Of a stretch of DNA of 64,000 nucleotides, positions 1 through 48,107 are shown piece after piece. This DNA is from Alphaproteobacteria bacterium. GTDB taxonomy: Bacteria > Pseudomonadota > Alphaproteobacteria > Rs-D84. The notes under the pieces were generated by a model, which was not told the origin of the DNA, did not search any database, and saw only the letters and a program-made list of their open reading frames with translations. The stretch spans positions 78,924 to 142,923 of the forward strand of contig JAKSTF010000001.1 in assembly GCA_024402715.1 (NCBI GenBank), given 5' to 3'. How positions within the stretch are numbered: the first letter of the stretch is position 1; every line of letters begins with the position of its first letter. Position numbers and translations under genes: made by a program.

Positions 1-2226
<2,226 letters not shown>

Positions 2227-2308: not shown

Positions 2309-2878
2309 ATGAAATTTAAACTGTTGTATTTTGGCGATATTTTTGTTAATCCCAAACGACGCACACAACATATCGCAGATATCCGGATGCAATTTCATCC
2401 GCAATTAAAAAAATTGGTCGAACATCAGCCATGGAATAATTTAACAAAATTCATGGAACCTGGGGCGACAAAAAGTCCAATAACCACACGACATGTTGGC
2501 GGAATAGATTGGAATCCGATTATTACCCCAAATCTAAAATTATTAGCAGAATTAGATATTTTAATTATGCACCCCGAAATTATTGGCGTTCCACGTAGTG
2601 ATATAGATAACCGTGTAAAAACATTATTTGATGGTCTGCGTTGTCCACAAAATGAGCATGAAATTGGCGACAACACACCACGTGATATCGGACCGATTTA
2701 TACATTATTAGATGATGATCATTTGATAACAAAAATGTCAGTTAATACCAGCCATATGCTATCAACACACATGTTCAACCCGAACATTGCACGTTCACAG
2801 GATACGCTGTTTATGCTGATTGATGTAAATGTACGCGTTGCCGAGGGAACCTTAGAAAACCTGCCATTTATGGTATAA
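2309..2878 (+). CDS. Hypothetical protein with a RusA-like (Holliday-junction resolvase family) acidic motif
   Basis: Track ORF 2210..2878, trimmed to ATG 2309 (MKFKLLYFGD) behind AAGGA at 2295-2299. Motif RSDIDNRVKTLFDGL ... LLDDDHLI resembles RusA R-x-D-L-D-N-x-x-K-x-x-x-D-A-L ... DD-x-x-V. Followed by a terminator hairpin. Confidence 0.6.
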   Translation: MKFKLLYFGDIFVNPKRRTQHIADIRMQFHPQLKKLVEHQPWNNLTKFMEPGATKSPITTRHVGGIDWNPIITPNLKLLAELDILIMHPEIIGVPRSDIDNRVKTLFDGLRCPQNEHEIGDNTPRDIGPIYTLLDDDHLITKMSVNTSHMLSTHMFNPNIARSQDTLFMLIDVNVRVAEGTLENLPFMV

Positions 2879-2880
2879 AT

Positions 2881-2911
2881 AAAAAACACCGGCTTTTGCT
2901 GGTGTTTTTTT
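2881..2911. terminator. Bidirectional intrinsic terminator between convergent genes
   Basis: AAAAAACACCGGC-TTTT-GCTGGTGTTTTTTT: A-run, GC stem with one G-U pair, then T-run. Confidence 0.8.
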
Positions 2912-4475
2912 AATTTGATGAATGATACGTTTCACCATTATATTGCACATTTATACTCCCAGACAAATCCCCAAGTATCAAATTACCATAACATATTTGA
3001 CCTGTCGGACTTTTCACATGAAGCGCCGGACGTGTTACCAGTGATTTATCACTGTATAATTGCACAGCAACACCTGTCGATGTTTTTAATTTTTGAAAAC
3101 CAGCATCACATACCGGACACGGATCTTCATCTGTACAATTACGACACACTGCAACCCCATCAATTATTCGTTGATCATTGCCTACGCCCGCAGACATTGT
3201 ACCGGTCGGACATTGTTTATCCATCAAAGTCGCCCCCGTAAACATTCCAGAATATACATTTGCATCACCACCAGTAATTTGTGCTAATAATTGTTTTGGG
3301 ATATATCCCGTTAACTTTGCACAATTTGCAAACGTTCCGGCAAACATATTTGAAATCGCATCGCCTTTCACGCCTTCAAACAGATTTTCCGGTAATGGTC
3401 CTGATAAATTCAAACATCCAGAAAATGTATTTTGAAACCCCTGTTGCCCCCCAGGAACCGTGGCAAAAACCTTTCCCAAAGAACCACTGAGCTTAATTAA
3501 TTTTAAATTATTTTGAAAACTTATTGCTGGATTTGCATTCGTTGTTGCCTGTCCATTAATAACAATATTATATTGACCGCTTGTCTGGTATTCACAGGTA
3601 ATAACATGTGTTCCCGAAGTATTATAATTTTGCGTTGTTGCAGATTCTCCATTGCCACAATCAATAACAAAATTTCCGGCTGTATTTATTTCAAAACTAA
3701 ATGTTTTATCAAAATTATCAATATTAACAGTTGCCGTAAATACCGTTTCATCTGGCCTACATATTACCCAACCAGTTACCTCATTTATTCCTTTTTGAAC
3801 TGTTCCTGTTGGACATTGTATCGTTGCAATTACGGTATTATCAAACGTTCCATTAAATGCTGTATTATCATCTGTTCCTGTTATATCTTTGAAAATTTCT
3901 GTTGCATCACCCGATACATTTTTATCACCATTAAACGTATCTTTGAACATATTATTTTCGGCACTGCCTGAAATGCCATCAAATATACCCGATGGTATTG
4001 TGCCTGTCAAATTCGAACATCCCTTAAACGTTTCGATAAATACGGGCTGCGACCCATCTGATAACGTTGGAAATATATGTCCTAGATTTCCGGATATACT
4101 GGATAATTTTCCACCATTACTACAATAAAAGGTCAATACCGCATTATAATTACTGGCCCAATTAGCCCCCTTATTATAATCATATGCCGTAGCCAGACCG
4201 TCTAAAGAAATTGTGTATTGAACAGGATTCTTGTTATTATTTGGATAATTGTGCGATGCTTGGACTTTTTGTCCTTTACCTGGATTTGAGACAATTGTTT
4301 CAACCGTACCATCGCCCCAATCAATCGTAAATGTCCCAGTTGCCCCAAACCATATCCCCATCCAACCCGGATTCGGCGTCGTCTGAATATAAAATGCTGC
4401 AAATGCACTGCGTGCAAAAAATGCACACAAGAAAAATATTGTCAAAAATATGTACGTCCGTACTATTTTCAGCAT
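2910..4475 (-). CDS. Secreted 521-aa protein with two tandem modules (PKD-like beta domain plus LRR-like F-x-x-C-x-N-L-T/S-G-x-I/L-P repeats plus a QCPTGT Cys motif)
   Basis: Sec signal MLKIVRTYIFLTIFFLCAFFARSAFA|A. Module 1 reads TFTIDWGDGTVE..SHNY..QYTISLDG ... FKGCSNLTGTIPSGIFDGISG..NMFKDTF ... QCPTGT. Module 2 reads NFVIDCGNGESA..TCEY..QYNIVINGQ ... FSGCLNLSGPLPENLFEGVKG..NMFAGTFANCAKLTGYIP ... QCPTGT. Confidence 0.8.
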   Translation of the reverse strand: MLKIVRTYIFLTIFFLCAFFARSAFAAFYIQTTPNPGWMGIWFGATGTFTIDWGDGTVETIVSNPGKGQKVQASHNYPNNNKNPVQYTISLDGLATAYDYNKGANWASNYNAVLTFYCSNGGKLSSISGNLGHIFPTLSDGSQPVFIETFKGCSNLTGTIPSGIFDGISGSAENNMFKDTFNGDKNVSGDATEIFKDITGTDDNTAFNGTFDNTVIATIQCPTGTVQKGINEVTGWVICRPDETVFTATVNIDNFDKTFSFEINTAGNFVIDCGNGESATTQNYNTSGTHVITCEYQTSGQYNIVINGQATTNANPAISFQNNLKLIKLSGSLGKVFATVPGGQQGFQNTFSGCLNLSGPLPENLFEGVKGDAISNMFAGTFANCAKLTGYIPKQLLAQITGGDANVYSGMFTGATLMDKQCPTGTMSAGVGNDQRIIDGVAVCRNCTDEDPCPVCDAGFQKLKTSTGVAVQLYSDKSLVTRPALHVKSPTGQICYGNLILGDLSGSINVQYNGETYHSSN

Positions 4476-4670
4476 TTACCATCCATATATAGTTTTCGCA
4501 CAAAACAAAACGTGTTTTATACGAAATTATTGTTCTAATAACACAGTTCCTACATTCAATTAATCGATTTTTGAATGCAAAACCCCATTATTATATTTGG
4601 ATAGTACAAAATTGGTAAAAATAATACAACGATATATTTTTAAAGTAAAAACAAACAGATAAAGCTATAT

Positions 4671-5741
4671 TTATGATAATACAGCCGTCAATTGATCCTG
4701 CATTTGAAACGTCCCCAACACAACCCATGCAATTATTGCTGATACCAACAATATTCCTAAACTGTTCATTATATTGGAAATTGATTCCATTTTTCGAATT
4801 GATTCCGATAAATAATCATCTGCAACACGTGATAAATTATTTGCAAAACCGTTCATATCCGCATATATCGTTAAATCGCCGATTAATTCTGTATTTGGAA
4901 AATCACGTCCTGTTTTTGATAAAGCCGCCCCTAAATTATCACCATTTGCAATATATCGCAAAGTCACACTTAAAATGTTACGTAAATACCGATTTGATGA
5001 ATCTGCCAACATCCGCATTGCATTTGGAATAGTTACACCAGCAGATAACATAGCCGCCAACGACATTAACCATCCAACAGACATATTTATTTTATAAATA
5101 TTCCATGGTGGCAACTTATCAATTTTTGCACGTAACCAACCTGCCCAATTTGGCAAACTGAACCAAATCAAACCAACAACAGTTGCAAAAACAATCACGA
5201 ACAGATACCAATATTTTATGGAAAAATCAGATAACCATATTAATGCTGATGCAGCAGATTGCCACATAACACCGGGCCCCGCAACCTCAACCAATGGTGG
5301 AACCAAATATAGACCAACCATGATAATTATGCCAAATGTTAACGCTAATAAAAACAAAGGATATGCAACCGCACCAATCATTGCACGGCGAATTCTTTGA
5401 ACACCACCAACGACCCGTCCAACATTTTCCAATGCAACAACCAAATCCGATATATTTCCCGATGTAACTAACAAAATTTCTTCTGGTGGCAACCATTCCC
5501 GTGTTGCATCAGAAAAACTCATTCCACGTTCTAAATTAATTTGCCATTGACGCATTGCAATTGCAAACGGTTCCCCATTCTTTGTTCCACCATGCGATTC
5601 AATAGACTCTAAACGAGTTAATGCATCCATTAAATTAAAATCATTACGTAACATAGATGCCAATTTACGCAGTATTGCCATACGTTTATCAATACTATTT
5701 CTAAAGACCAGTTTAGCATACCACAATTCTATTTTACTCAT
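4671..5741 (-). CDS. GspF/PilC-family inner-membrane platform protein (R64 PilR / TcpE / BfpE-like)
   Basis: 356 aa with two repeated T2SS-F-like halves, each followed by hydrophobic helices (AVAYPLFLLALTFGIIIMVGLYLV; NSLGILLVSAIIAWVVLGTF). Abuts the ATPase gene with a 1-nt gap. Confidence 0.8.
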   Translation of the reverse strand: MSKIELWYAKLVFRNSIDKRMAILRKLASMLRNDFNLMDALTRLESIESHGGTKNGEPFAIAMRQWQINLERGMSFSDATREWLPPEEILLVTSGNISDLVVALENVGRVVGGVQRIRRAMIGAVAYPLFLLALTFGIIIMVGLYLVPPLVEVAGPGVMWQSAASALIWLSDFSIKYWYLFVIVFATVVGLIWFSLPNWAGWLRAKIDKLPPWNIYKINMSVGWLMSLAAMLSAGVTIPNAMRMLADSSNRYLRNILSVTLRYIANGDNLGAALSKTGRDFPNTELIGDLTIYADMNGFANNLSRVADDYLSESIRKMESISNIMNSLGILLVSAIIAWVVLGTFQMQDQLTAVLS

Positions 5742-5742
5742 A

Positions 5743-7386
5743 TTAATACACTCCTGGCCTGTCTAATAATCCAACCCAACGCTCCAATTCATCAACACCG
5801 ATAATTCCCTGTAACATTAATTCAGCAGCAGCTTCTTTCAAAGTACGCCCTTCCATTTCTTCTAACCAATATCGTACAGCACCATCTGTATCACCCATCA
5901 ATGCCAAACGCAAAAATTCACTGTTTGTAATAATAATTTCACCGGCTTTAATACGGCCAAATGTTCCAGTTCCATTACAATGTTCGCACCCTATACCCCG
6001 AACATACACCTGGCGTAATCCCAATTGACCATATGCATCCAACACACGTTTATATGCCGGATTTTCTGGATGTTCTATTAACCGTTGTCGACAATGGGGA
6101 CATAATTTTTTAAACAAACGCATTGATACCAAACCACGCATTAACGTTTCGTCTTTTAATTTAAATGCTTCTATACCTAAATCCAATAAACGTGTTAATG
6201 CAGCCATTGCAGAATTAGCATGCAATGTTGTCCAAACATTATGACCCGATAAAGCACCACGTACAGTCAATTCGGCAGCTGCCAATGTTCTGATTTCACC
6301 AACCATTAACGTATCCGGATCACTACGTAATGCCGCTGCCAATGCTTCTGTATATTTGTCTTCGCGTTGTTCTTCATTTGTTGTATTAACAACTGGCATT
6401 TGATGTGCCCCAAAAATCTTTTGTTCAACGGGGTTTTCCACCGTGATCAAATTTATTTCATAATTACGTTCCTTTAACATCATCGACATATTACGAACCA
6501 ATGTCGTTGATTTTCCCGAACTGGTTGGCCCGGCAACAATTATCAACCCAGTTGGAAATGACCGCAAACGCATTAATAATTTTTGTTCATATTCGCCAAA
6601 TTCTTGCTCTGTTTTAATACCTTCGGATGGATTATCGTATAACAAACGCATTACAACATAACGACTACCAAAGGCAACCGGATTAAATTGCATACGAATA
6701 CTTAAAATTCCTAATGGTAAATATAAATCTTTAGTACCACGTAATGGTGTACGCCCATCTTTTTGTGCAGATTGATATTCATTTTGTGCATAGTTTGCGT
6801 TTGACATATCAGCAGATGCAAACGCAGCACGAACAAACGATTCACCCCAACCCGCATTATATTCCAACACCGGTTGCATGCTTCCATCTATGCGAAAATA
6901 AATTGTTGTTTGATCTGCAACCTCTATATGTATATCAGACACTTGTTGGGCAGCCGCCTTGGCAATAATATCAACAAAATTTTTCTGCATTTGATTGTCA
7001 AAATCACGGCTATTACGTCCATGTCCACCCAAACGACTATCATACGTTTTATATATTGCAGATACCAATCCTAAATCAGAATAAAACGGTTTACGCATTG
7101 GTATACCACTGCGTATTAATAAATCAATAAATGCTAATACCCGCCCATCATATCTGTGCGTCCGTGAAACGATTAATTCCCCACCAGAAAAATACGCAAT
7201 AATCCCCTGGGTATCACGTGGCAATTCTTGACTTCCACCGGCCGCCGTTAACAAACGATTTCCATTTGAAAACAAATAATCAACAATGTCTTTGATATCG
7301 GCATTTTCCAACCCTGCAGGGACAGATGGGTGATCCGCGACTGAATCAACATTATTTTTTAATGTATTCTTTTTTGTAGTTTTCAT
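5743..7386 (-). CDS. GspE/PilB-family secretion/pilus-assembly ATPase (R64 PilQ-like)
   Basis: Walker A AGPTSSGKSTT, Asp-box/Walker B region DPDTLMVGEIRT, His box VWTTLHANSA, tetracysteine CPHC..(x)..CEHCNGTG. Confidence 0.9.
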   Translation of the reverse strand: MKTTKKNTLKNNVDSVADHPSVPAGLENADIKDIVDYLFSNGNRLLTAAGGSQELPRDTQGIIAYFSGGELIVSRTHRYDGRVLAFIDLLIRSGIPMRKPFYSDLGLVSAIYKTYDSRLGGHGRNSRDFDNQMQKNFVDIIAKAAAQQVSDIHIEVADQTTIYFRIDGSMQPVLEYNAGWGESFVRAAFASADMSNANYAQNEYQSAQKDGRTPLRGTKDLYLPLGILSIRMQFNPVAFGSRYVVMRLLYDNPSEGIKTEQEFGEYEQKLLMRLRSFPTGLIIVAGPTSSGKSTTLVRNMSMMLKERNYEINLITVENPVEQKIFGAHQMPVVNTTNEEQREDKYTEALAAALRSDPDTLMVGEIRTLAAAELTVRGALSGHNVWTTLHANSAMAALTRLLDLGIEAFKLKDETLMRGLVSMRLFKKLCPHCRQRLIEHPENPAYKRVLDAYGQLGLRQVYVRGIGCEHCNGTGTFGRIKAGEIIITNSEFLRLALMGDTDGAVRYWLEEMEGRTLKEAAAELMLQGIIGVDELERWVGLLDRPGVY

Positions 7387-7406
7387 CTGTCAGCATCCCA
7401 ATTATT

Positions 7407-8159
7407 TTAATCATGTTTTGCCCCAACATTTAATGATTGAATGTCATTATTTTCTGTATTAACAAATACAACACCATCATCTAATGAAATCGATTTTACT
7501 GTATAGCCATCTAAAACCTTACCTACACCAATTTTACGTTTTTGACCAGATATTAGATCTGTAATAGTTGCTTGCAACTGATTACCTGCACCAATTACAT
7601 TAATTAGTTTGTACCTTTCACTGAAAATAACGGATACATTTTCTTCAGCCTGTGCAGCTGTATTATCAACATGATGCTGTACGGTACTACTAGAAGATTT
7701 TAAATCATTTTCACGGGCCGCTAATGCTGCTTTTTCGTGTTCCAATTCTGCAACTTCGGCTTCTAATTTTGCACGTGCTGTCTCTATTTCTAATTGCTGT
7801 TGTTCAGCTTTGTCTGACAAATTATCAATTTCCATATGCAATTTAATTTTTTCAGCAGCTAATCTATCTAAATCCAGATCCAATTGGGCACGTTCTTTTT
7901 CCAACTGCATCAAAACTTTTTCCTGTTCTAAATTTGTAATTTGTTCAAACAAAGAACCATCTACCTTGTATTTTGATACAGCCTGAGCAGAAACGGATTC
8001 CATTTCAGCATCTACAGACGCATCCTCATTTTCATCAACGGCTGTTTCTGTAATTACAATTTCTTCATCCATAACATCTTCTGCATATGCATTTAAGTTA
8101 AAACAAAAAAATGCTACAACAATGGAATAAACAAAAATAAATTTTAAATTATTTTGCAT
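7407..8159 (-). CDS. Exported coiled-coil protein with a PilP/GspC-HR-like C-terminal beta domain (tentative)
   Basis: Signal peptide ..FNLNAYA|ED, acidic stretch, ~90-aa heptad-rich region (LEQEKVLMQLEKERAQLDLDLDRLAAEKIKL..), and C-terminal YKLINVIGAGNQLQATITDLISGQKRKIGVGKVLDGYTVKSISLDDGVVFV. Overlaps the upstream gene by 11 nt. Confidence 0.55.
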   Translation of the reverse strand: MQNNLKFIFVYSIVVAFFCFNLNAYAEDVMDEEIVITETAVDENEDASVDAEMESVSAQAVSKYKVDGSLFEQITNLEQEKVLMQLEKERAQLDLDLDRLAAEKIKLHMEIDNLSDKAEQQQLEIETARAKLEAEVAELEHEKAALAARENDLKSSSSTVQHHVDNTAAQAEENVSVIFSERYKLINVIGAGNQLQATITDLISGQKRKIGVGKVLDGYTVKSISLDDGVVFVNTENNDIQSLNVGAKHD

Positions 8160-9417
8160 AGATTATCACCTCATAGTTCCATGTACGATCTGTGACGTCC
8201 CATACGCTGCGCGTCATATAGACACCACTAAAATCATCAAAAATTTTCATAAATTGCATTGGCGCCAATTTGGATTCCACTGCAATCTCGACAACATTCA
8301 GCACAACCGTCTCGACACCATTTGTCAAAACATCAGATGTTACATCCACATCTACCGGCATTGCAGCAGATTGAAATGCTGTTCGCACAGCACGTGCTAC
8401 ACTGTCCGCATCACGTTCTTCAACAGAAGAATTTGTTGCTACCTGTGGTAACGCGACACGAACATTTACAGAATTTGGTGATTGTTCAACAACAAATGCC
8501 CCAGGAATTAATTCAGTGGCAATATCGTAAAAACTTGTTAATGTTCCAAATTGACGTGAAAAGGCGGCAATCGCATGTGTGGTATCACATTCAACAGAAA
8601 CTTGACGCCAACCATAAATTGATTGCATTAATAACCCAATTGCCCGATAACACATATCCGCCCGCAACGCCACATCTGGCAATTTATCATATGGCAAAAC
8701 GATTGGATCTGGTTCCGGAACGACTTCTTTGACTATTTCAAATTGTTCATCCAATTGTTTATTTTTCTCGTCAATTTGCCGATGATATTCTGCCGCCAAT
8801 TCCGGATCAATTTGCGAAATCTGTGGACGCGGCATTATCATTTGAATAATCGGTTCGTAAAATATCATCCAAAAACTAACACAAAAACCAATCATTAATA
8901 CAAATGACCACAAAAATGCTCTACCACGACTGATGGGCCGCAATTTTCCATGAACATTATTATGAATTAGATCATACAAATTATGTTCTGTTGCCCGCGG
9001 CATTCCCCATCCAGCCGGCGCAAACAAAGCCCCCCAATCAGGAATTTCAGATAACTTAAAATATTCAGCCCGTGCATCTTCTGCATGCGCAAAAATTGTA
9101 TCAGTTAAAATAACCCCATTACGAACAGCAAGCAAATAAAAACCATGCCCTGTATCAAACACCCCCAAAAAAGAATTATATTCTGTTAATGTATTAACAA
9201 TTTCTGCCGCGGCACTTGGCATTCCAACGCGATGCCCCATTCGTCGTGCCCCCAAGCCTAACATAGAATGATATTCTGTAAACAGGTTTAAATTTTTGTT
9301 TATTTTATACGCCAATGAACGTGCAAATGCACGTTGGTTACCCACCATCGCCATGGGTTGCCAAAACAATCCAACAGCGTATTTTTTTCGATTAATTGTA
9401 ATTACTTGTGCTGACAA
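8149..9417 (-). CDS. Bitopic inner-membrane pilus-assembly protein, R64 PilO / BfpC-like (tentative)
   Basis: 422 aa: cytoplasmic N-domain (INRKKYAVGLFWQP..), a single TM (AFLWSFVLMIGFCVSFWMIFY), and a ~220-aa C-terminal domain. It is the first gene of the four-gene string. The family call rests on architecture and synteny only. Confidence 0.5.
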   Translation of the reverse strand: MSAQVITINRKKYAVGLFWQPMAMVGNQRAFARSLAYKINKNLNLFTEYHSMLGLGARRMGHRVGMPSAAAEIVNTLTEYNSFLGVFDTGHGFYLLAVRNGVILTDTIFAHAEDARAEYFKLSEIPDWGALFAPAGWGMPRATEHNLYDLIHNNVHGKLRPISRGRAFLWSFVLMIGFCVSFWMIFYEPIIQMIMPRPQISQIDPELAAEYHRQIDEKNKQLDEQFEIVKEVVPEPDPIVLPYDKLPDVALRADMCYRAIGLLMQSIYGWRQVSVECDTTHAIAAFSRQFGTLTSFYDIATELIPGAFVVEQSPNSVNVRVALPQVATNSSVEERDADSVARAVRTAFQSAAMPVDVDVTSDVLTNGVETVVLNVVEIAVESKLAPMQFMKIFDDFSGVYMTRSVWDVTDRTWNYEVIIYAK

Positions 9418-9510
9418 TGTACCTCTCTGATCCCTGTTATGCTGATTATAACATAAAAATTATAGTTTTGGCAAACATAGAATTCGTTAATACATGATTA
9501 AAACACAATT

Positions 9511-9535
9511 AAAAAACGTCAAAATTGACGTTTTT
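9511..9535. terminator. Intrinsic terminator hairpin separating the lpx/lipoprotein transcription unit from the pilus-like operon
   Basis: AAAAAACGTCA-AAAT-TGACGTTTTT: perfect palindrome flanked by A and T runs, just downstream of the 9544 stop. Confidence 0.7.
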
Positions 9536-9543
9536 AATAAAAC

Positions 9544-9966
9544 TTAATGACACCCATAGGGTCGATTATCACAATGATTTCCGTCATCAATTATTGGAGT
9601 ATACACACCAGCCTCATCTGATGCAATCCGTGCACTGCGTGGATTTGGACAATCATAAACATTTGCTGTTAAAACAAATGCACGTTCTGGTCCAAAAACA
9701 ACCCATTCATTTGGCCGAGTTCGTTGACTGGTTATCCAATATGCATTACCTGGACGTGCCTGATCAACGATACGATTTTCCAAATAACGACGTGCATCAT
9801 CGGCGTCATAGACAGAAACCTCAGATTCCAATTTATACAAATATGTACAACCGATTGGTTCACCTTTTAATTGGGTTAAATATTCACTGCCATTTTGATT
9901 TTGTATCATTCCACCACACGCTGCCAAAACAAACGATAACACACAAAAAATAAATATTTTTTTCAT
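9544..9966 (-). CDS. Small lipoprotein (possibly DUF4156/RcsF-like fold, low certainty)
   Basis: Lipobox VLSFVLAAC|GG; 140 aa; Cys-containing C-terminus. Lies 22 nt downstream of lpxC and is followed by a terminator. Confidence 0.6.
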   Translation of the reverse strand: MKKIFIFCVLSFVLAACGGMIQNQNGSEYLTQLKGEPIGCTYLYKLESEVSVYDADDARRYLENRIVDQARPGNAYWITSQRTRPNEWVVFGPERAFVLTANVYDCPNPRSARIASDEAGVYTPIIDDGNHCDNRPYGCH

Positions 9967-15016: not shown

Positions 15017-15925
15017 TTAAACTAATCCTTTTCGTTCACAATTTATCATATCTACCCGGTATTGTGATTCTTTTTCATCTTTGTTTTTTATTTTTTGCCC
15101 ACCGATATTAAATAAAAATTTATCTCTTAAATTATTATTGGCCAGAAAACCATCCTCAACATGTATTACAGAATGTATTTCTAATTCTGTTAAACATTTA
15201 TTATTGTTCATAAACAGCCTAGCTATACGTTCTAAATTTGGCGCACAAACTTTTTTTACACTATCATTACAATTCATAAATCTGTACCCAACCTGTACTA
15301 ATTCTGGAAAATATAACTCTATTAAACGATTATTATAATACATAAAATCATTCTCGACTTGGATCAAATTTGGTAAAACCAATTCTATCAACTTGATATT
15401 TCTATACAAAAAATCATTACCAACGTATTTCAAATTTGGTAAATATAATTTTACTAAATCTGTATTACTGCTCATAAAATCATTACCAACCCGGATTAAA
15501 TTTGGCATATTTATTTTTATATCATTTTTATTGAAACGCAAAAATTCATTTTTTATTGTTGAAACTGATGGTAAATTTAATTCACGCAAACTGTTGTTAT
15601 GGCGTAAAAATTTATCACCAATATGCGTTACGGTTGGAAAATTTATCGCTGTTATTTTACCATCTTCAATATGAACAATTTCAACACCGTCTGCCAATAT
15701 TCCATTTTTATTTACTGTTACTTTTTTGTTTTTTATTTCTGTATTAAAAGCATCAATAAAACCATCATCCAAACCAGATGGATTTAATAATCGTTTTTCT
15801 TTATTATCCCATATAAAATAATCTAATACTGTTTGATTGTCTCGGTTTATTTCATGTATTTGACCATGTGATTCATAAAAATTTTCACCAAAATAAACAT
15901 TACATATCTCATAATTATATTTCAA
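15017..15925 (-). CDS. Leucine-rich-repeat protein (about 22-23-aa repeats L-x-L-P-N-L-x-x-V-G-N-x-F-L/M-x-x-N), possibly the C-terminal part of a split gene
   Basis: Repeats read NLPSVSTIKNEFLRFN / NMPNLIRVGNDFMSSNTDLVKLY / LPNLKYVGNDFLYRNIKLIELV / LPNLIQVENDFMYYNNRLIELY / FPELVQVGYRFMN.. The only available start is TTG, with no Shine-Dalgarno. Overlaps the upstream ORF by 11 nt in the +1 frame. Confidence 0.6.
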   Translation of the reverse strand: MKYNYEICNVYFGENFYESHGQIHEINRDNQTVLDYFIWDNKEKRLLNPSGLDDGFIDAFNTEIKNKKVTVNKNGILADGVEIVHIEDGKITAINFPTVTHIGDKFLRHNNSLRELNLPSVSTIKNEFLRFNKNDIKINMPNLIRVGNDFMSSNTDLVKLYLPNLKYVGNDFLYRNIKLIELVLPNLIQVENDFMYYNNRLIELYFPELVQVGYRFMNCNDSVKKVCAPNLERIARLFMNNNKCLTELEIHSVIHVEDGFLANNNLRDKFLFNIGGQKIKNKDEKESQYRVDMINCERKGLV

Positions 15926-16658: not shown

Positions 16659-17735
16659 TTATTCTTGAGTTGAATTAATTCCAATCATCAAATTTTGTAA
16701 ACGTTCCATACTTGTCGCATCATTCAACGCCGCAGCAATCGTATACGCAGATTCTAAATCACGACGCGCATCATCTATATTACCCAAATTCAAATTTAAT
16801 GCAGCTGATTTTTCGTAATACGACATTGCATTACTGGATAATCTTTCCCGTTCTTCAGTGGTAGTAGTCCCGGCAATTTGTTCAGATATTACACGCACTG
16901 CAGAATCGTAATCCAAAACTGCTTCGCTGTACTTATTTAATGCAGTGTATGCCTCAGCACGTTCAGCATATACAGACGGGCTGATAATACCATCTGGTAA
17001 TGCCAATGAATTTGTATAATCTGCAACAGCACCATCCCAATTTTTCAACCACAAATTCAATTGGCCACGTTTTGCATACAAATCGCGCATTTGTAAAATT
17101 TCACTTGGTGAAACAGTTTGGGCTGCCAACGCGGCATTCACATCAGCCAAGGCAGCATCATAATTTTCCATACGAGTATAAATTAATGCCCGATCATAAT
17201 ACGCAACAGCATTTCCTGCTTCTTTTTCAATCGCCATATTAAAATCATTTAAAGCTGCCGCATAATCACCAGATTGCATATATGCTTCGCCTCGTAGGAT
17301 ATACGCATCAACATTTGCCGTCCCTGTTTCAATTGCGGCTGTTAAATCTGAAATTGCATCTGCAATATTTTTTGCCAATAAATTAGTTTTTCCACGTTCG
17401 TAATAGTCAGATGCCTGCAGCAATGTTTCTTCACTAACACCATTTGACATGCTTTGTACCTGGTTCATCATGCCATGACTGCGTCCCAAAATATAAAATG
17501 TTGCGGATATAAAAAACAATATTATAAACCAATAAATATATATTGATAAAGACCACGGATTAAAGCATTGTTTACAATCCGGCGTTGCTTTGGTTCCTTT
17601 TACAGCCAAAACATCCTTGTTAACTTCCCGCATTTCTTTGGTTAATTTCTTTGTCATCGGTGCAACACTGGCGGTTTTAGCAGAATTGCGCCCCTTTTTA
17701 GAGGTATTTTTTTCCATAATAAAACTCCCTTCCAT
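16659..17735 (-). CDS. Membrane-anchored tetratricopeptide-repeat protein
   Basis: Lys-rich N-terminus, TM (LSIYIYWFIILFFISATFYIL), then repeated A-x-x-D-x-x-x-A-I/L..P..A.AY..RG motifs (e.g. DAYILRGEAYMQSGDYAAALNDFNMAIE, AVAYYDRALIYTRMENYDAALADVNAAL). The start may be M7 (17717). Confidence 0.75.
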   Translation of the reverse strand: MEGSFIMEKNTSKKGRNSAKTASVAPMTKKLTKEMREVNKDVLAVKGTKATPDCKQCFNPWSLSIYIYWFIILFFISATFYILGRSHGMMNQVQSMSNGVSEETLLQASDYYERGKTNLLAKNIADAISDLTAAIETGTANVDAYILRGEAYMQSGDYAAALNDFNMAIEKEAGNAVAYYDRALIYTRMENYDAALADVNAALAAQTVSPSEILQMRDLYAKRGQLNLWLKNWDGAVADYTNSLALPDGIISPSVYAERAEAYTALNKYSEAVLDYDSAVRVISEQIAGTTTTEERERLSSNAMSYYEKSAALNLNLGNIDDARRDLESAYTIAAALNDATSMERLQNLMIGINSTQE

Positions 17736-19164: not shown

Positions 19165-21402
19165 ATGGCAGAAAAGTTCAAGATTTTATCCGTTGGTGGT
19201 TCTGGCAAAGGGCTGAATATTTTCAAATCCAGCGCATACAAAGAACATGAAAAAAAACCGATGGCATCGTTATTTTGGTCAATACGATGGACGATCGGAA
19301 TATGGTTGGTATGTGCTATGGCATTTTGCTTGTCGTTTATATTTGAACATATTTGGCGATACGGTTGGTCACCTGCAACCGCACATTGGACACAAATTTA
19401 TTTACAGCATATGTTTTCAACCATGGGTTTATCTGTTATGGCAGAGATTCCCGATTGGTTTATTCGTACAGTTTTGCGTACAGATATAATGTGTATTATT
19501 CCACTGTTTCCAATAATTGCATTTTATATGATGGCTGATGCCACAATTACCAAAGAATTTAACCCATATGGGAATGATAAATTTTCTGAAAAATCATCTA
19601 ATAAGGCCACCAAAGAAGATATTGAAAAAATGGGATTATTTAAGGGCTTTATGATGGTATTGGGATATTTTAAAGGCAAACCTTTGATGATGCCAGAAAC
19701 ATTATCCGCATTATGTTTAGCCCCTCCGGGGACCGGTAAAACCGCCGGGGTAGTAATTCCAACAATTTTGGATTGTGATGCTTCTTCAATGATAATAAAC
19801 GATCCCAAACCCGAATTAAAACAAATTACATCGGCATACCGTGCAACCATAGGACCGGTGTTTATTATGAATTGGGCGGGTCAGGACGATCCAGAAAATG
19901 GAATCTATTACCCTTCATGGAATCCATTATCACCAGAACATATTCCTTTTAACCAGGAACAACGCGATTTGTATGTTGATTCAATGTGCAAAATTTTGGT
20001 TCAAGAAAGTAAAAATGATCCGCATTGGTCAAATACAGGGCGTGCTGGATTGGCTGGTATGATTCAATTTATGGTATCAAAAATTGAGCACGCACGTGCA
20101 GATGATTATTTTTATGCCAGACTTGATTCCGGAACATTTGATGCCGAAGATGCCGCAGTATTACAGGAATATTACCAACAGATGAGTTTTAGTGGTAATT
20201 CCAATGCATACGCCGCCATGGCCCAATTACAAGATGGCAAATTAAATACTGTAAATTATTTACATATTGGAACATGGGCCCATATTCCACAACGTTGGTT
20301 GGGCAAAGAGGCATCGTTATCATTAATTTTAGATTGGTTAACAGAAACCCAATTGCAGCTGGCGGCAGAATTGGAAGAACGTCGCCGTCAAGGTGATCAA
20401 ACTGTTATGATGGCCGATCCAATGCGTGACGTGTTAGAAAATGCAGTAAACGAAGCCCGGGTATATGACTATTCCCGCCGCGCAATCCAAGAATTAACAC
20501 AATTAGCAAATACCCCAGGTCAAGAACGTGGTTCTATTATTTCAACGATTATGGCGGGTTTGGCAATATTTAGAAATGCCGCTGTTCGTAATCGTACCAG
20601 TCATTCTGATTTTCATTTTGCAGATTTACGTGGTATGCTTGATCCCAGAGACGGCAAGATTAAACCTGTTACTGTTTACCTGTCAATTAATATGGTTGAT
20701 GCCCAGGCGTTAAATCCAATTACGGGTATATTTATTGAACTGATGTCTAATTTCCTGTTGGCAAATGCCCCAGATAAAATTGGAACAACCGGTGAAAAAA
20801 TGGGGCCGTATCCCGTATTATTCGTATTGGATGAAATGCCTAAAATGCAAAAATTGGACGCCGTTATACAGGGCCCCGATTTGGGACGTGGTCAAAAAAT
20901 TTCATATTTGATTATTGGTCAGGATATTCACCAAATTCAAGAACGGTATGGTGCAGATGCAGCCTCAACAATTATATCAACAACCGCAGCAAAAATCGTA
21001 TTACGTCAAAATGATCCAACAACAGCCAAGACATTTAGTGATATGATGGGCTATAAAATGAAAATAACAACTGTAAAGGGCGCAGACGGCAAAGATAAAG
21101 ACGAGACAAAAGAAGAATTGTTATATACCCCAATGGATATTATGAAATTAGCAAAAGGTAAACAGATTGTCATTTTTCAAGGATACTATAATCGCCCGAT
21201 CGAAGCAGATCAAGAATTGCATTTCTTGGGTAAAAATGATGTTCAAAAGAAATTGGCTGCTAAGATTGCAATGGGAGAATCAGCCCCAATGCCAGAATTT
21301 TTGATTCCATCACATTTTTCGGCATTGGGGTATACAGGGACGCCCAAAGTGTACGATCCAACAACAAAAGAAATTAAAATTTTGGATACGGTTACACAAT
21401 AA
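19165..21402 (+). CDS. virD4: Type IV secretion coupling protein (VirD4/TraG family)
   Basis: Two N-terminal TM segments, Walker A CLAPPGTGKTAGVVIPTIL, Walker B VLFVLDEMPKM, and IIGQDIHQIQERYG, as in T4CPs. 745 aa; the start may be M33. Confidence 0.85.
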   Translation: MAEKFKILSVGGSGKGLNIFKSSAYKEHEKKPMASLFWSIRWTIGIWLVCAMAFCLSFIFEHIWRYGWSPATAHWTQIYLQHMFSTMGLSVMAEIPDWFIRTVLRTDIMCIIPLFPIIAFYMMADATITKEFNPYGNDKFSEKSSNKATKEDIEKMGLFKGFMMVLGYFKGKPLMMPETLSALCLAPPGTGKTAGVVIPTILDCDASSMIINDPKPELKQITSAYRATIGPVFIMNWAGQDDPENGIYYPSWNPLSPEHIPFNQEQRDLYVDSMCKILVQESKNDPHWSNTGRAGLAGMIQFMVSKIEHARADDYFYARLDSGTFDAEDAAVLQEYYQQMSFSGNSNAYAAMAQLQDGKLNTVNYLHIGTWAHIPQRWLGKEASLSLILDWLTETQLQLAAELEERRRQGDQTVMMADPMRDVLENAVNEARVYDYSRRAIQELTQLANTPGQERGSIISTIMAGLAIFRNAAVRNRTSHSDFHFADLRGMLDPRDGKIKPVTVYLSINMVDAQALNPITGIFIELMSNFLLANAPDKIGTTGEKMGPYPVLFVLDEMPKMQKLDAVIQGPDLGRGQKISYLIIGQDIHQIQERYGADAASTIISTTAAKIVLRQNDPTTAKTFSDMMGYKMKITTVKGADGKDKDETKEELLYTPMDIMKLAKGKQIVIFQGYYNRPIEADQELHFLGKNDVQKKLAAKIAMGESAPMPEFLIPSHFSALGYTGTPKVYDPTTKEIKILDTVTQ

Positions 21403-45397: not shown

Positions 45398-47824
45398 TTA
45401 CAGGTCACCTGCCCCCTGTTTTTTCAAATATTCTGAAACAAATGCATTACCGTATTGTGAATACAATTCTTCTGCCAATAATACAGATGGACGGCCTGAT
45501 TCAAATAATCGTAACATATTCCCCAAACCACCCAATTCCGTATTCAATATTACAGATTCACCGGTTACAGGACGAGATAACAACACCGCACGTTTCAAAT
45601 TCGGATATGCACGTCCACGTATAAAATCCATTTCCAACGGATTTAAATTCCAATGTGAATAATCATTTGTATCCGCTGCAGGATTCCTGAAAAACATTAC
45701 CGTTTGAATTTGCCCACGTGCAACATCACCTATGCCCAATTTATCTAAAATATTTGCACGTTGGAATGCCACCATATATGCCTGACGATTTTTTCGCCCC
45801 TCTTGTAAACCAGCAATAAAATTATCACGAAACATTTTATTTTCTAACATTGGTGCCGTTTCATCAATCATTATCAGTGATGGGTTACCACCGGATACTG
45901 TAATATTGTTTATTCTGTGTAATATATACGATAACACTGCTGGGGCCAATGTTTCATCCTGTAAAACATCCGTAAAATCAAATGTTGTTAATCGTGATTG
46001 TAAATCCAGTGTATCATTTTCTTCATTAAACATATCCCCATATTGTAATGGATCAATCCATTTTTTTAATTGTGGTCTGACATTGCCAGATGCAGAAAAA
46101 CAACTTTCCCATAAATTTTTTAATAATCTGTCTTTTTCAGATAAATAATCAAAATTAACAGATACTGCACGTGCAATTTCATCAGCAGATTCTGAGTCCG
46201 TTGCACCCGTAATTATTGAAAACCAACGACGCAAAAATGCACGATTTGCCGCCGTATCCGGCATTTTTAATGGATTTAAACGGGTTTGAAATGATATACC
46301 AGATTCATTTTTTTCACGTCCCTGCATGGTGATATATTTACCGCCAACCGCCAATGTAAATATTTCAGCCCCATGATTACGATCAAAGAAAAATGCCTTT
46401 AATTTTGGATGACGTAATGACTGTGAAATTAAAAAACTGAACAATGTTGTTTTACCGCCGCCTGTTGGTCCAATTGTCATTGTATGTCCAACAGCAGCCG
46501 GTTTATCTGATACATGAAATTGAAATTGATATGGCGTACCCTGGGCTGTAGGAAAAACAACCAATGGTCCTGATCCCCAATCAGAATTTGCGACACCACG
46601 TGGTTGTGAATCCATTGGTATACTGGTGGCAGCCGTTTTTGACAACATTTTGAAACTGCGTGGAAATGTATCAAAACCCGGAATTAATGAAAACCATGAA
46701 ACTTTTGCTGCATATGTTTCAACAATCGGTGATACACCATATGATGCAGATATTTTTTTAAATTCATCAACGTACTTATTTAATTCATCAATATTGTCTG
46801 CATACAAAACAAATAAAGGGTAATAATTAACCAAATTTTGATTTCCAACAATATTTTCATCCATTGCGTTTTTTGCAACATCAATTTGTTGTTCTGTTGT
46901 TTCAAAATTATCATCATTTGCAGTCGCACGTCGTTGACGTAAAACATTTTGAATATCTGCTGTTCCCATTATATGAAATGCATTCATACAAATCATTTCT
47001 GTTTGTATTGTTGAAATTGCCGAAAAGAATTCTTCATCCATATAATCTGGGGATATTTTAAATGATATCATTGCAGAAAATGAATTTTTATCACCACTGG
47101 TATATTGAACATAACCATTTTTTAAAAATTTAATATCATCAACAGTTGTAACATCTGCAATACTGTTATCACATACAATGGGCTGTGGTTTTGTAATTGG
47201 TGATAAAATCCGACCAAAAAAACGTGCCATATTATCTGTTGAATTATTTTTCAATAACATCGGTTTATATGCTGCCAAAACAGATTCAATATAATTCCCA
47301 TATTGATTCAGTTTTTCACGTGAATTAGAACCATAAACAGATAAAACAATATAATAATCATTTAAAAATATCTGCAAACCACGTGTTTGCCATTTATCAT
47401 ATATTTTTTGTAATACAGGTTGATCAAATTCATAATCTGTATTTTCATCAGATGCATTACGAACAGTAAAAAAACGAATTATTACATTCGGATCACGAAT
47501 TTGATTAAATAAACTGGCACGTAAATCCAAAAATTTTTCGTGTGCTGTTGGATTTTGCATACTTGTTTGTATACCTGCAACACGATAAACACGCACCAAT
47601 GCACCATTAATCAATTGTAACGAATTATCATTGTATACAGTATTAAATGGTAAATACTGAGAATAACTACCATATCCAAATTTTGGCAAAATACGCCGTG
47701 TTAAAACAGGTAAATATATCATCAACGCAATAAAAACCAATATGACTGCCATAGATAAAACAAGCATCGTCATCGGAAATCCACTACCTGCAAAGTATTC
47801 AAAAAAATTATTCATGTTATGCAA
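45398..47824 (-). CDS. virB4: Type IV secretion ATPase VirB4/TrbE family
   Basis: 808 aa with an N-terminal TM; Walker A TIGPTGGGKTTLFSF; Walker B-like PSLIMIDETAPML. Overlaps virB3 by 8 nt. Confidence 0.9.
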   Translation of the reverse strand: MHNMNNFFEYFAGSGFPMTMLVLSMAVILVFIALMIYLPVLTRRILPKFGYGSYSQYLPFNTVYNDNSLQLINGALVRVYRVAGIQTSMQNPTAHEKFLDLRASLFNQIRDPNVIIRFFTVRNASDENTDYEFDQPVLQKIYDKWQTRGLQIFLNDYYIVLSVYGSNSREKLNQYGNYIESVLAAYKPMLLKNNSTDNMARFFGRILSPITKPQPIVCDNSIADVTTVDDIKFLKNGYVQYTSGDKNSFSAMISFKISPDYMDEEFFSAISTIQTEMICMNAFHIMGTADIQNVLRQRRATANDDNFETTEQQIDVAKNAMDENIVGNQNLVNYYPLFVLYADNIDELNKYVDEFKKISASYGVSPIVETYAAKVSWFSLIPGFDTFPRSFKMLSKTAATSIPMDSQPRGVANSDWGSGPLVVFPTAQGTPYQFQFHVSDKPAAVGHTMTIGPTGGGKTTLFSFLISQSLRHPKLKAFFFDRNHGAEIFTLAVGGKYITMQGREKNESGISFQTRLNPLKMPDTAANRAFLRRWFSIITGATDSESADEIARAVSVNFDYLSEKDRLLKNLWESCFSASGNVRPQLKKWIDPLQYGDMFNEENDTLDLQSRLTTFDFTDVLQDETLAPAVLSYILHRINNITVSGGNPSLIMIDETAPMLENKMFRDNFIAGLQEGRKNRQAYMVAFQRANILDKLGIGDVARGQIQTVMFFRNPAADTNDYSHWNLNPLEMDFIRGRAYPNLKRAVLLSRPVTGESVILNTELGGLGNMLRLFESGRPSVLLAEELYSQYGNAFVSEYLKKQGAGDL

Positions 47825-48107
47825 TTAATCTCCCTGGGATTTTTTGTTTAAACAGTTGGAATTTTGATGCCAAAATCTGTCCCAATTGTGGATCACGTTT
47901 CGCAAATGGCATCAGTATTAAATGAACACATATAACTGATAACAAAAACCAAAGTGGGTTTGGAGCTTCATGCCATAATATTAATTCCGATACCATAACA
48001 ATAATAAATACCAAAAACTGAACCGCAAAATTCAACACCGCCAACGTGTACGGTACAAAAAATATACGTGCTGGATTTGCCAATGCTTTCAGTACTGGTT
48101 GTCGCAT
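47817..48107 (-). CDS. virB3: Type IV secretion protein VirB3/TrbD family
   Basis: 96 aa; LKALANPARIFFVPYTLAVLNF.. plus two hydrophobic helices and ..AKRDPQ.., as in VirB3. Translationally coupled to virB4. Confidence 0.8.
   Translation of the reverse strand: MRQPVLKALANPARIFFVPYTLAVLNFAVQFLVFIIVMVSELILWHEAPNPLWFLLSVICVHLILMPFAKRDPQLGQILASKFQLFKQKIPGRLIA

Follow-up and report, generated by a model that had tools for sequence, protein, structure and literature searches.

Four adjoining genes in a 64,000-nucleotide stretch of alphaproteobacterial DNA (assembly GCA_024402715.1, contig JAKSTF010000001.1; the whole stretch is called the window below) are best explained as the assembly core of a split type IVb pilus of the R64/PAPI-1 lineage, chromosomal and vertically inherited in Candidatus Enterousia, with the pilin gene at a distance. 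We assign this reading a probability of about 0.78. The unit under study occupies positions 4671–9417 on the minus strand. Type IVb pili of this lineage are best known from conjugative plasmids and islands of Gamma- and Betaproteobacteria, to which they are accessory. The two large clades of uncultured gut Alphaproteobacteria described below carry such a machine in their chromosomes as a fixed trait.

A type IVb pilus assembly core

The unit consists of four abutting open reading frames (ORFs) encoding proteins of 422, 250, 547 and 356 amino acids (aa), the first two overlapping by 11 nucleotides (nt). The 422-aa protein (orf422) matched the Pfam family PF06864 (PAP_PilO) with 36.2 bits against a cut-off of 26.7; this PilO family is distinct from PF04350, the PilO of the type IVa PilM/N/O alignment complex (PMC3984277). 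A single transmembrane segment at about residues 166–184 separates a cytoplasmic actin-like, BfpC-like domain from a conserved periplasmic alpha/beta domain. When searched against plasmids by tblastn, orf422 aligned with genes annotated ‘pilO2: type 4b pilus protein PilO2’ (Bosea, 7e-19), with further matches in Methylorubrum, Cupriavidus, Salmonella and P. aeruginosa pKLC102-like plasmids. The top fold match of its AlphaFold2 model (predicted local distance difference test score, pLDDT, 73) was the cytoplasmic N-domain of BfpC (3vhj). No sequence similarity to BfpC was detectable, and the fold match agrees with the published actin-like fold shared by PilO2 and BfpC (PMC3984277).

The 250-aa protein (orf250) combines a Sec signal peptide, an acidic linker, an invariant coiled coil (residues 70–157) and a C-terminal HR-type beta domain (183–243), which its model (pLDDT 73) renders as one long helix and a six-stranded beta domain over the same residues. 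It scored 32.6 bits against NCBIfam TIGR03021 (pilP_fam), just below the cut-off of 34.65, and a homologue (P0424) carries the name ‘type IV pilus biogenesis protein PilP’ from the Prokaryotic Genome Annotation Pipeline. Six of the eight best Foldseek matches to the model were PilP structures (including 3jc8_Pa, 2ivw, 2lc4 and 2y4y), and the other two were LspC (7oio, GspC-type) and 3oss_C, a GspC HR domain in complex with GspD; the top PilP and GspC-HR matches had probabilities of 0.99–1.00 and template modelling scores of up to 0.68 on the target. Profile searches of the PDB with this protein and with a 140-aa lipoprotein encoded next to the unit returned coiled-coil noise only.

The third protein is an ATPase matching Pfam T2SSE with 215 bits and displaying Walker A (286), Asp box (316), Walker B (356), His box (381), CPHC (429) and CEHC (467) motifs. 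Its best PDB match was BfpD (8dze), with 266 bits over residues 40–531, compared to about 150 bits or less over the C-terminal two-thirds only for the PilF, GspE and PilB structures. On plasmids, its best matches (31–37% identity) were ATPases at the PilQ position of Bosea, Methylorubrum, IncI-type and pKLC102-type elements, with bfpD genes close behind; the genes matched stand second after pilO2 on the plasmids that orf422 had matched. PF00482 (T2SSF) was matched twice by the fourth protein, the inner-membrane platform.

Profiles built from about 80 Enterousia orthologues per protein were compared with two plasmid systems, P. aeruginosa pY89 and Bosea pBSY19_1, whose gene order is TcpQ, PilN, PilO2, PilP, ATPase, platform, then pilin, PilT and PilV, and in which pilO and pilP overlap by 11 nt as in the window. 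With the PilO profile, PilO2 of Bosea scored 99 bits and that of pY89 53 bits; with the ATPase profile, the two ATPases scored 339 and 266 bits in the same order; with the platform profile, Bosea PilR scored 266 bits and pY89 PilR2 172 bits; and with the PilP profile, pY89 PilP reached only 9.9 bits. Scores against the NCBIfam equivalogs of other machines stayed far lower than their cut-offs. For the ATPase, these were 217.8 bits with GspE (cut-off 630) and 191 bits with PilB (cut-off 675), and for the platform 67 bits with GspF (cut-off 424). No other Gsp parts were seen in Pfam scans of the window. The unit thus lacks the marks of a type II secretion system, and with its PilB score and a PilO of PF06864 instead of PF04350 it also falls outside the type IVa pili. 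Together, these comparisons support the identification of 4671–9417 as the predicted inner-membrane assembly core of an R64/PAPI-1-type type IVb pilus.

A preliminary description of the window had anticipated much of this. The four genes it placed on the minus strand lie at exactly the positions it gave. Its picture of a bitopic orf422, of an orf250 with signal peptide, coiled coil and beta domain, of an ATPase and of a GspF-class platform is borne out by transmembrane, fold, motif and Pfam evidence, and its assignment in the order pilO-pilP-pilQ-pilR by the BfpD match, the gene order with its 11-nt overlap, and the two profile searches that it had proposed for orf422 and orf250. It had also reported that pilin, prepilin peptidase, secretin and transglycosylase are missing from the window, and the scans agree. 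Secretin, Peptidase_A24, pilin and SLT families gave no match in Pfam scans of the larger ORFs of the window, nor did integrase or relaxase families; a six-frame scan of the window found no class III leaders; and pilin, PilN, TcpQ and PilT profiles made from the nearest relatives detected nothing in the window except the ATPase itself.

Vertical inheritance in a genome-reduced clade

Enterousia belongs to the order Rs-D84, with genomes of 0.75–1.0 Mb that lack the tricarboxylic acid cycle, respiration and flagella, and for which a partner-dependent lifestyle has been proposed (PMC12306168). The coding fraction of 81–94% is typical and was read by the authors as showing no pseudogene accumulation (PMC12306168). 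When species-representative genomes were searched with the ATPase, 383 relatives were obtained. The best 80 of these 383, on which the synteny and conservation figures given here for about 80 species are based, were 81–98% identical to the window and all belonged to Candidatus Enterousia or to unnamed gut Alphaproteobacteria metagenome-assembled genomes (MAGs). The gene order in these species is DUF374, lpxK, lpxC, the 140-aa lipoprotein gene, orf422, orf250, ATPase, platform, a variable segment of 0–8 kb, a gene for a 189-aa protein, and gyrB. All four ORFs are intact in 77–79 of the 80 loci (orf422 in 79). Identity to the window was 81–98% for the ATPase, 65–99% for the platform, 46–92% for orf422 and 43–91% for orf250, compared to 59–92% for LpxC and 57–93% for LpxK.

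The ATPase is therefore more conserved than two enzymes of lipopolysaccharide (LPS) synthesis encoded beside it, and this, with the fixed synteny, argues that the system is functional, vertically inherited and not mobile. The pattern indicates a core under purifying selection that is neither a mobile element nor a remnant of one. The boundaries drawn in the preliminary description, LPS genes on one side and gyrB on the other, without integrase or relaxase and with virB3, virB4 and virD4 present in the window, were all confirmed. The link that it suggested to a mobile conjugative element was not, as the comparison of neighbourhoods that it had recommended found the block syntenic among housekeeping genes, between the lpx genes and gyrB, in about 80 species. 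Several records of the collection (L011, L088, L176, L182 and L218) hold Enterousia or RF32-like contigs under the labels Bacteroides fragilis, Lactobacillales, Muribaculaceae, Bacteroidaceae and Lachnospiraceae; these are probably mislabelled or contaminated bins.

A complete cluster in the nearest relatives

In a full scan of cluster representatives, the nearest ATPases outside Enterousia were 53–54% identical. They come from loci (L084–L163) of other gut Alphaproteobacteria MAGs, including CAG:495, Ca. Scatocola and ‘Azospirillum sp. UMGS63’, a sister clade that we take to be RF32-like in GTDB naming. Enterousia is about equally distant from all of these loci, with identities of 48–55% for the ATPase, 38–45% for the platform and 19–32% for PilO, the higher PilO values in this range covering partial alignments only. 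The sister cluster is chromosomal and complete, comprising TcpQ, PilN secretin, PilO, a long PilP-like protein, ATPase, platform, one to four tandem pilins and PilT. At locus L138, for example, Pfam recognised TcpQ (61 bits), Secretin (63 bits) and PilS/Bundlin pilins (67 and 45 bits). Loci L084–L118 form a subgroup that has kept TcpQ through platform and carries its pilins elsewhere, an intermediate state. Compared to the complete cluster, the Enterousia locus is without TcpQ, the PilN secretin, cis pilins and PilT, and the comparison indicates that these genes were lost from it. In the simplest history, the common ancestor would have had the whole type IVb cluster, whose genes were then dispersed and lost step by step.

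The sister pilins share an almost invariant N-terminus, ...SG/RSMVEMLGVLAIIGVLSVGG. Up to four of them stand in tandem (L126–L128, L138, L148, L151 and L155; for example L138:13369–15371), with identical N-termini and divergent C-terminal PilS/Bundlin domains, an arrangement that looks like a pilin-variation cassette.

An unlinked pilin

Because this N-terminus is nearly invariant, it was turned into a search pattern for the Enterousia pilin. A degenerate DNA pattern for G-R-x-[MLVI]-[VIL]-E-M-L-[GA]-x-L-A-I was run over the genome collection and gave at least 120 stretches. Eight of the 120 stretches listed encode a distinct, mutually similar pilin of 154–158 aa with two conserved cysteines and the N-terminus M-x-x-E-S-G/R-S-M-I-E-M-L-G-V-L-A-I-M-G, in which G(-1) and E(+5) are conserved. 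The gene always lies between uvrC and a pseudouridine synthase gene, with dnaJ and dnaN near and, in the longer locus L284, dnaA too.

Several records place this pilin in genomes that carry the core. Pilin L198 lies at 176–184 kb of contig JAFVFD010000005.1, which holds the O-P-Q-R locus L064 at 298–320 kb; pilin L204 comes from the same assembly as core locus L007; and pilin L242 is labelled Candidatus Enterousia. The protein collection contains 832 pilin clusters and 838 orf422 clusters, and the best 120 pilin clusters are 76–99% identical. Several pilin clusters are found on contigs of 886,885, 291,217 and 217,242 bp, sizes equal to those of core-gene contigs. In GCA_964313715.1, both lie on a single contig of 886,885 bp (CAYBZM010000001.1), the core at about 455.6–460.2 kb and the pilin at 601,988–602,467, about 146 kb apart; on the shared contigs, core and pilin are separated by about 130–146 kb.

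The class III prepilin expected of an R64/PAPI-1-type pilus is thus absent from the window and present, in an atypical form, in the chromosomes of congeners. Its place on the same chromosome as the core argues for a split type IVb pilus that has a pilin, and against a motor without one. The preliminary description had left two possibilities, a stripped-down fibre or secretion motor and a split system with its other parts elsewhere. For the pilin the second is right. The first survives in part, with secretin and TcpQ missing from the locus. A complete cluster of pilin, peptidase and secretin elsewhere in the genome had been named beforehand as the outcome that would make this an ordinary split type IVb pilus; the discovery of the pilin moves the finding in that direction, with secretin and peptidase not detected in the Enterousia sequence examined.

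Weighing the readings

Several observations weigh against a split type IVb pilus in Enterousia. A published gene-content survey makes no report of type IV pili for Rs-D84 (PMC12306168), and we found no literature describing pili in Enterousia or Rs-D84. The candidate pilin is short (154 aa), has no PilS/Bundlin domain (no PF08805 match), scores 16.8 bits against N_methyl, below the cut-off, and was found in congeners, outside the window’s own genome; the metagenome contigs of the latter yielded no more than short fragments when compared with an Enterousia pilin locus, DNA likeness between the species being less than 90%. A G-x-G-D-x-K/R motif scan of the ORFs of all loci examined found no prepilin peptidase. 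In the known systems this enzyme is PilU (R64) or the PilD of the host (PAPI-1). The conservation of G(-1) and E(+5) in the pilin suggests that a peptidase exists in Enterousia as well. Neither a secretin nor TcpQ was found in 1.66 Mb of (largely redundant) Enterousia sequence, the inspection covering about a tenth of any one Enterousia genome. Finally, no Enterousia assembly appeared among the 119 PilN genes listed in a motif scan, so an essential part of a diderm surface pilus is unaccounted for.

That scan used the PilN motif S-x-[ST]-V-T-T-[LI]-N-x3-[AV]-P-[IF]-Q, which is invariant in pY89 (Pseudomonas), Bosea and the sister clade, and covered PilN-type secretins only, GspD, PilQ and RcpA-type secretins lying outside its scope. 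Among the 120 matches listed, 119 were true PilN genes; nearly all those with flanking sequence stood beside TcpQ and/or a sister-type PilO, and the remainder belonged to Pseudomonas, Trinickia and similar genera. From the clade ratio in the pilin scan, about 11 Enterousia matches were expected among those listed. As a control, 24 of about 75 sister assemblies of the pilin scan reappeared among the listed PilN matches, compared to none of the eight Enterousia assemblies (p ~0.05). TcpQ and PilN are also absent from their ancestral position in all of the about 80 Enterousia loci. The PilN secretin and TcpQ/PilL that an R64/PAPI-1-type pilus uses were thus found neither in the window, nor in the Enterousia sequence examined, nor among the listed motif matches, and the result points to, rather than proves, loss of the PilN-type secretin from Enterousia.

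Were PilN and TcpQ truly lost, PilOPQR could be a repurposed motor that polymerises the short pilin into an endopilus or piston confined to the periplasm, or into a fibre that leaves by a route other than a secretin, such as a contact site or a passage made jointly with the scattered VirB/VirD4 type IV secretion system. Such a type IVb motor with a single short pilin and without cognate secretin, TcpQ or retraction ATPase is unlikely in our judgement, although it is the reading favoured by the empty ancestral position, by the scans just described and by the unusually small pilin; PilT and PilV, like PilN and TcpQ, were not found in the 1.66 Mb. The scans, however, addressed the PilN family alone, in part of the collection and in about a tenth of an Enterousia genome. 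Moreover, an alignment of the Enterousia orthologues shows the HR domain of PilP to be strictly conserved. To our knowledge, the only role of the PilP/GspC HR domain is docking on the N0 domain of a secretin, and its conservation therefore counts against secretin loss. No diderm is known to us that makes a surface type IV pilus while lacking a secretin.

A type II secretion system (GspE/F/L/C-like) in place of a pilus is very improbable. It would explain why the highest NCBIfam score of the ATPase is to the GspE model and why some sources name a homologue of the pilin ‘type II secretion system protein’ or ‘PulG’, and it draws on the structural relationship of PilO2/BfpC to GspL and of PilP to GspC (PMC3984277), the latter also visible in the fold matches of orf250. 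However, the GspE score remains far under its cut-off, over its full length the ATPase matches BfpD best, the PilO2 family is specific to type IVb systems, the cluster in the relatives holds PilS/Bundlin pilins, TcpQ and a PilN-type secretin, and neither a GspG–K pseudopilin set nor GspM was seen. Hardly credible is a decaying, non-working remnant of the thin pilus of a conjugative element (R64-like). Most canonical genes are indeed missing in cis, and type IV secretion genes occur in the window, but 77–79 of 80 species have intact ORFs, conservation of the ATPase exceeds that of lpxC and lpxK, the housekeeping synteny is fixed with no integrase or relaxase family detected, and the coding fraction of these genomes has been read as free of pseudogene accumulation (PMC12306168).

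Flanking and neighbouring features

Upstream of the unit lie lpxC, lpxK and the DUF374 gene, and downstream gyrB (Table 1). A promoter-like site located 28 nt upstream of the pilO2-like start, with 11 of 12 consensus matches the top score of the region, is probably the operon promoter, and a terminator-like hairpin beyond it is suggestive of the end of the upstream lipoprotein/lpx transcript and of the limit of the pilus unit on its 5' side. Each of the two is a lone match to a consensus, and the total counts of such matches in the region equal shuffle expectation. The terminator given as a boundary in the preliminary description is accordingly present as a hairpin, with a weight limited by those counts.

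Table 1. Positions of the pilus unit and of other features in the window
Feature	Position	Strand	Evidence or remark
pilO2-like bitopic assembly protein, 422 aa	8149..9417	-	PF06864, plasmid pilO2 matches, BfpC-like fold
pilP-like periplasmic protein, 250 aa	7407..8159	-	TIGR03021 near cut-off, annotation pipeline name, Foldseek
pilQ/BfpD-class type IVb pilus extension ATPase, 547 aa	5743..7386	-	T2SSE, BfpD 8dze, motifs
pilR-class inner-membrane platform, 356 aa, two T2SSF domains	4671..5741	-	PF00482 twice, profile scores
promoter-like site, TTGCCA-18-TATAAT with extended TG	9445..9474	-	consensus match only
terminator-like hairpin, 10-bp stem then T-run	9512..9535	-	consensus match only
140-aa lipoprotein, family unassigned	9544..9966	-	neighbour; position conserved between lpxC and pilO2
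gyrB	before 1..2187	-	downstream flank
236-aa ORF, TTG start	728..1438	+	antisense artefact within gyrB
189-aa cytoplasmic protein	2309..2878	+	matches no known family
insertion hotspot	2879..4670		directly downstream of platform gene
521-aa cysteine-rich protein with Sec signal	2910..4475		within the hotspot
BspA-type leucine-rich-repeat protein	15017..15925	-	near the cluster
tetratricopeptide repeat (TPR) protein	16659..17735	-	bitopic
virD4	19165..21402	+	stands alone
virB4	45398..47824	-	
virB3	47817..48107	-	
virB3, virB4, then ORFs of 206, 583 and 236 aa	42221..48107	-	the three ORFs without family match

The cysteines of the 140-aa lipoprotein are invariant. Its gene is always placed between lpxC and the pilO2-like one (about 76 species) and sits where the sister clade has TcpQ-PilN. 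It is probably transcribed separately from the pilus unit, because the hairpin and the promoter-like site lie between them. It was considered as a hidden pilus part and set aside, as it matched no type IVb component and no Pfam, NCBIfam or PDB entry; it was likewise set aside as a TcpQ, the hhalign similarity covering the lipoprotein signal peptide only. The 189-aa protein, 71–98% identical in about 80 species, is encoded divergently from gyrB, and the start listed for its ORF, 2210, was probably set too far upstream. It too was rejected as a hidden pilus part, with no match to a type IVb component, Pfam, NCBIfam or PDB. A 236-aa ORF tried as a pilus part proved to be antisense to gyrB, and its apparent conservation is that of gyrB.

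Directly downstream of the platform gene, the window and the matching gap in L001–L080 form an insertion hotspot. In the window it carries the 521-aa secreted protein; in other species it holds restriction-modification genes, a sigma factor, helix-turn-helix proteins, other unrelated genes, or nothing. The 521-aa protein was dismissed as a cargo or adhesin, since it occurs in the window, L001 and L081 only and within this variable segment. Further away, the BspA-type protein shows no tie to the pilus. The TPR protein was rejected as a pilotin, as it is bitopic (one transmembrane segment, periplasmic TPRs) and no lipoprotein, with no tie to the pilus either. The genes for type IV secretion are dispersed between housekeeping genes.

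Proposed function and relation to known systems

By analogy with BfpC/D/E and PilO2/Q2/R2 (PMC3984277), a hexameric PilQ-like ATPase would bind two partners, the PilR platform and PilO2 at its cytoplasmic domain, and ATP hydrolysis would drive mature pilin out of the inner membrane onto the base of the fibre. PilP, by way of its HR domain, would join the periplasmic part of PilO2 to a partner in the outer membrane. As substrate, the machine would use the 154-aa class III prepilin, its leader M-x-x-E-S-G cleaved before R-S-M-I-E-M-L. We infer the production of a fibre and a route for it across the outer membrane; most plausibly, it would serve attachment to a partner cell or host surface, which fits the partner-dependent lifestyle (PMC12306168), possibly in cooperation with the scattered VirB/VirD4 system.

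In a clade with genomes of about 0.9 Mb, four clustered genes and one distant pilin have been retained, and the ATPase is among the most conserved proteins of the region. Such conservation in a minimal genome suggests a core role, and the pilus is probably central to the lifestyle of these metabolically dependent, possibly partner-attached bacteria. What sets the system apart is the combination of four clustered genes and a small unlinked pilin with the probable loss of the cognate secretin, TcpQ and PilT. From the complete cluster, through clusters whose pilins have moved away, to a locus from which the secretin is gone, the two clades offer a natural series on which parts of a type IV pilus are dispensable. 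Should the secretin prove to be genuinely missing, Enterousia would offer one of the rare type IV filament systems of diderms that lack one. The motor would then be a minimal machine of the envelope, suited to the contact-dependent life of a bacterium whose genome measures about 0.9 Mb.

Among characterized systems, the bundle-forming pilus of enteropathogenic Escherichia coli provides the best solved structure for the ATPase (BfpD) and the best fold match for orf422 (the BfpC cytoplasmic domain), and the inferred contacts among ATPase, bitopic protein and platform are modelled on BfpC/BfpD/BfpE (PMC3984277). The rest of the bfp operon is unlike the Enterousia locus, with its BfpB secretin lipoprotein, BfpU, BfpG and others. 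The R64 thin pilus and that of PAPI-1 (pKLC102), arranged as TcpQ(PilL2)-PilN2-PilO2-PilP2-PilQ2-PilR2-PilS2-PilT2-PilV2-PilM2, have the same four core families in the same order, namely a PF06864 PilO2, an HR-domain PilP, a tetracysteine BfpD-like ATPase and a two-domain platform, and a class III prepilin with G(-1) and E(+5). In contrast to these plasmid- and integrative and conjugative element-borne systems, that of Enterousia is chromosomal and vertical; TcpQ, PilN secretin, PilT, PilV and PilM are absent from its locus; its pilin is unlinked (130–146 kb), 154 aa long and without a recognisable PilS domain; there is no shufflon; and its proteins are 21–37% identical to the plasmid homologues. 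The sister-clade cluster differs in keeping TcpQ and PilN upstream and, at most loci, one to four PilS/Bundlin pilins and PilT downstream. It nevertheless represents the nearest relatives of the Enterousia system, with the same O-P-Q-R order and a pilin N-terminus almost identical to that of Enterousia (GRSM[VI]EMLGVLAI).

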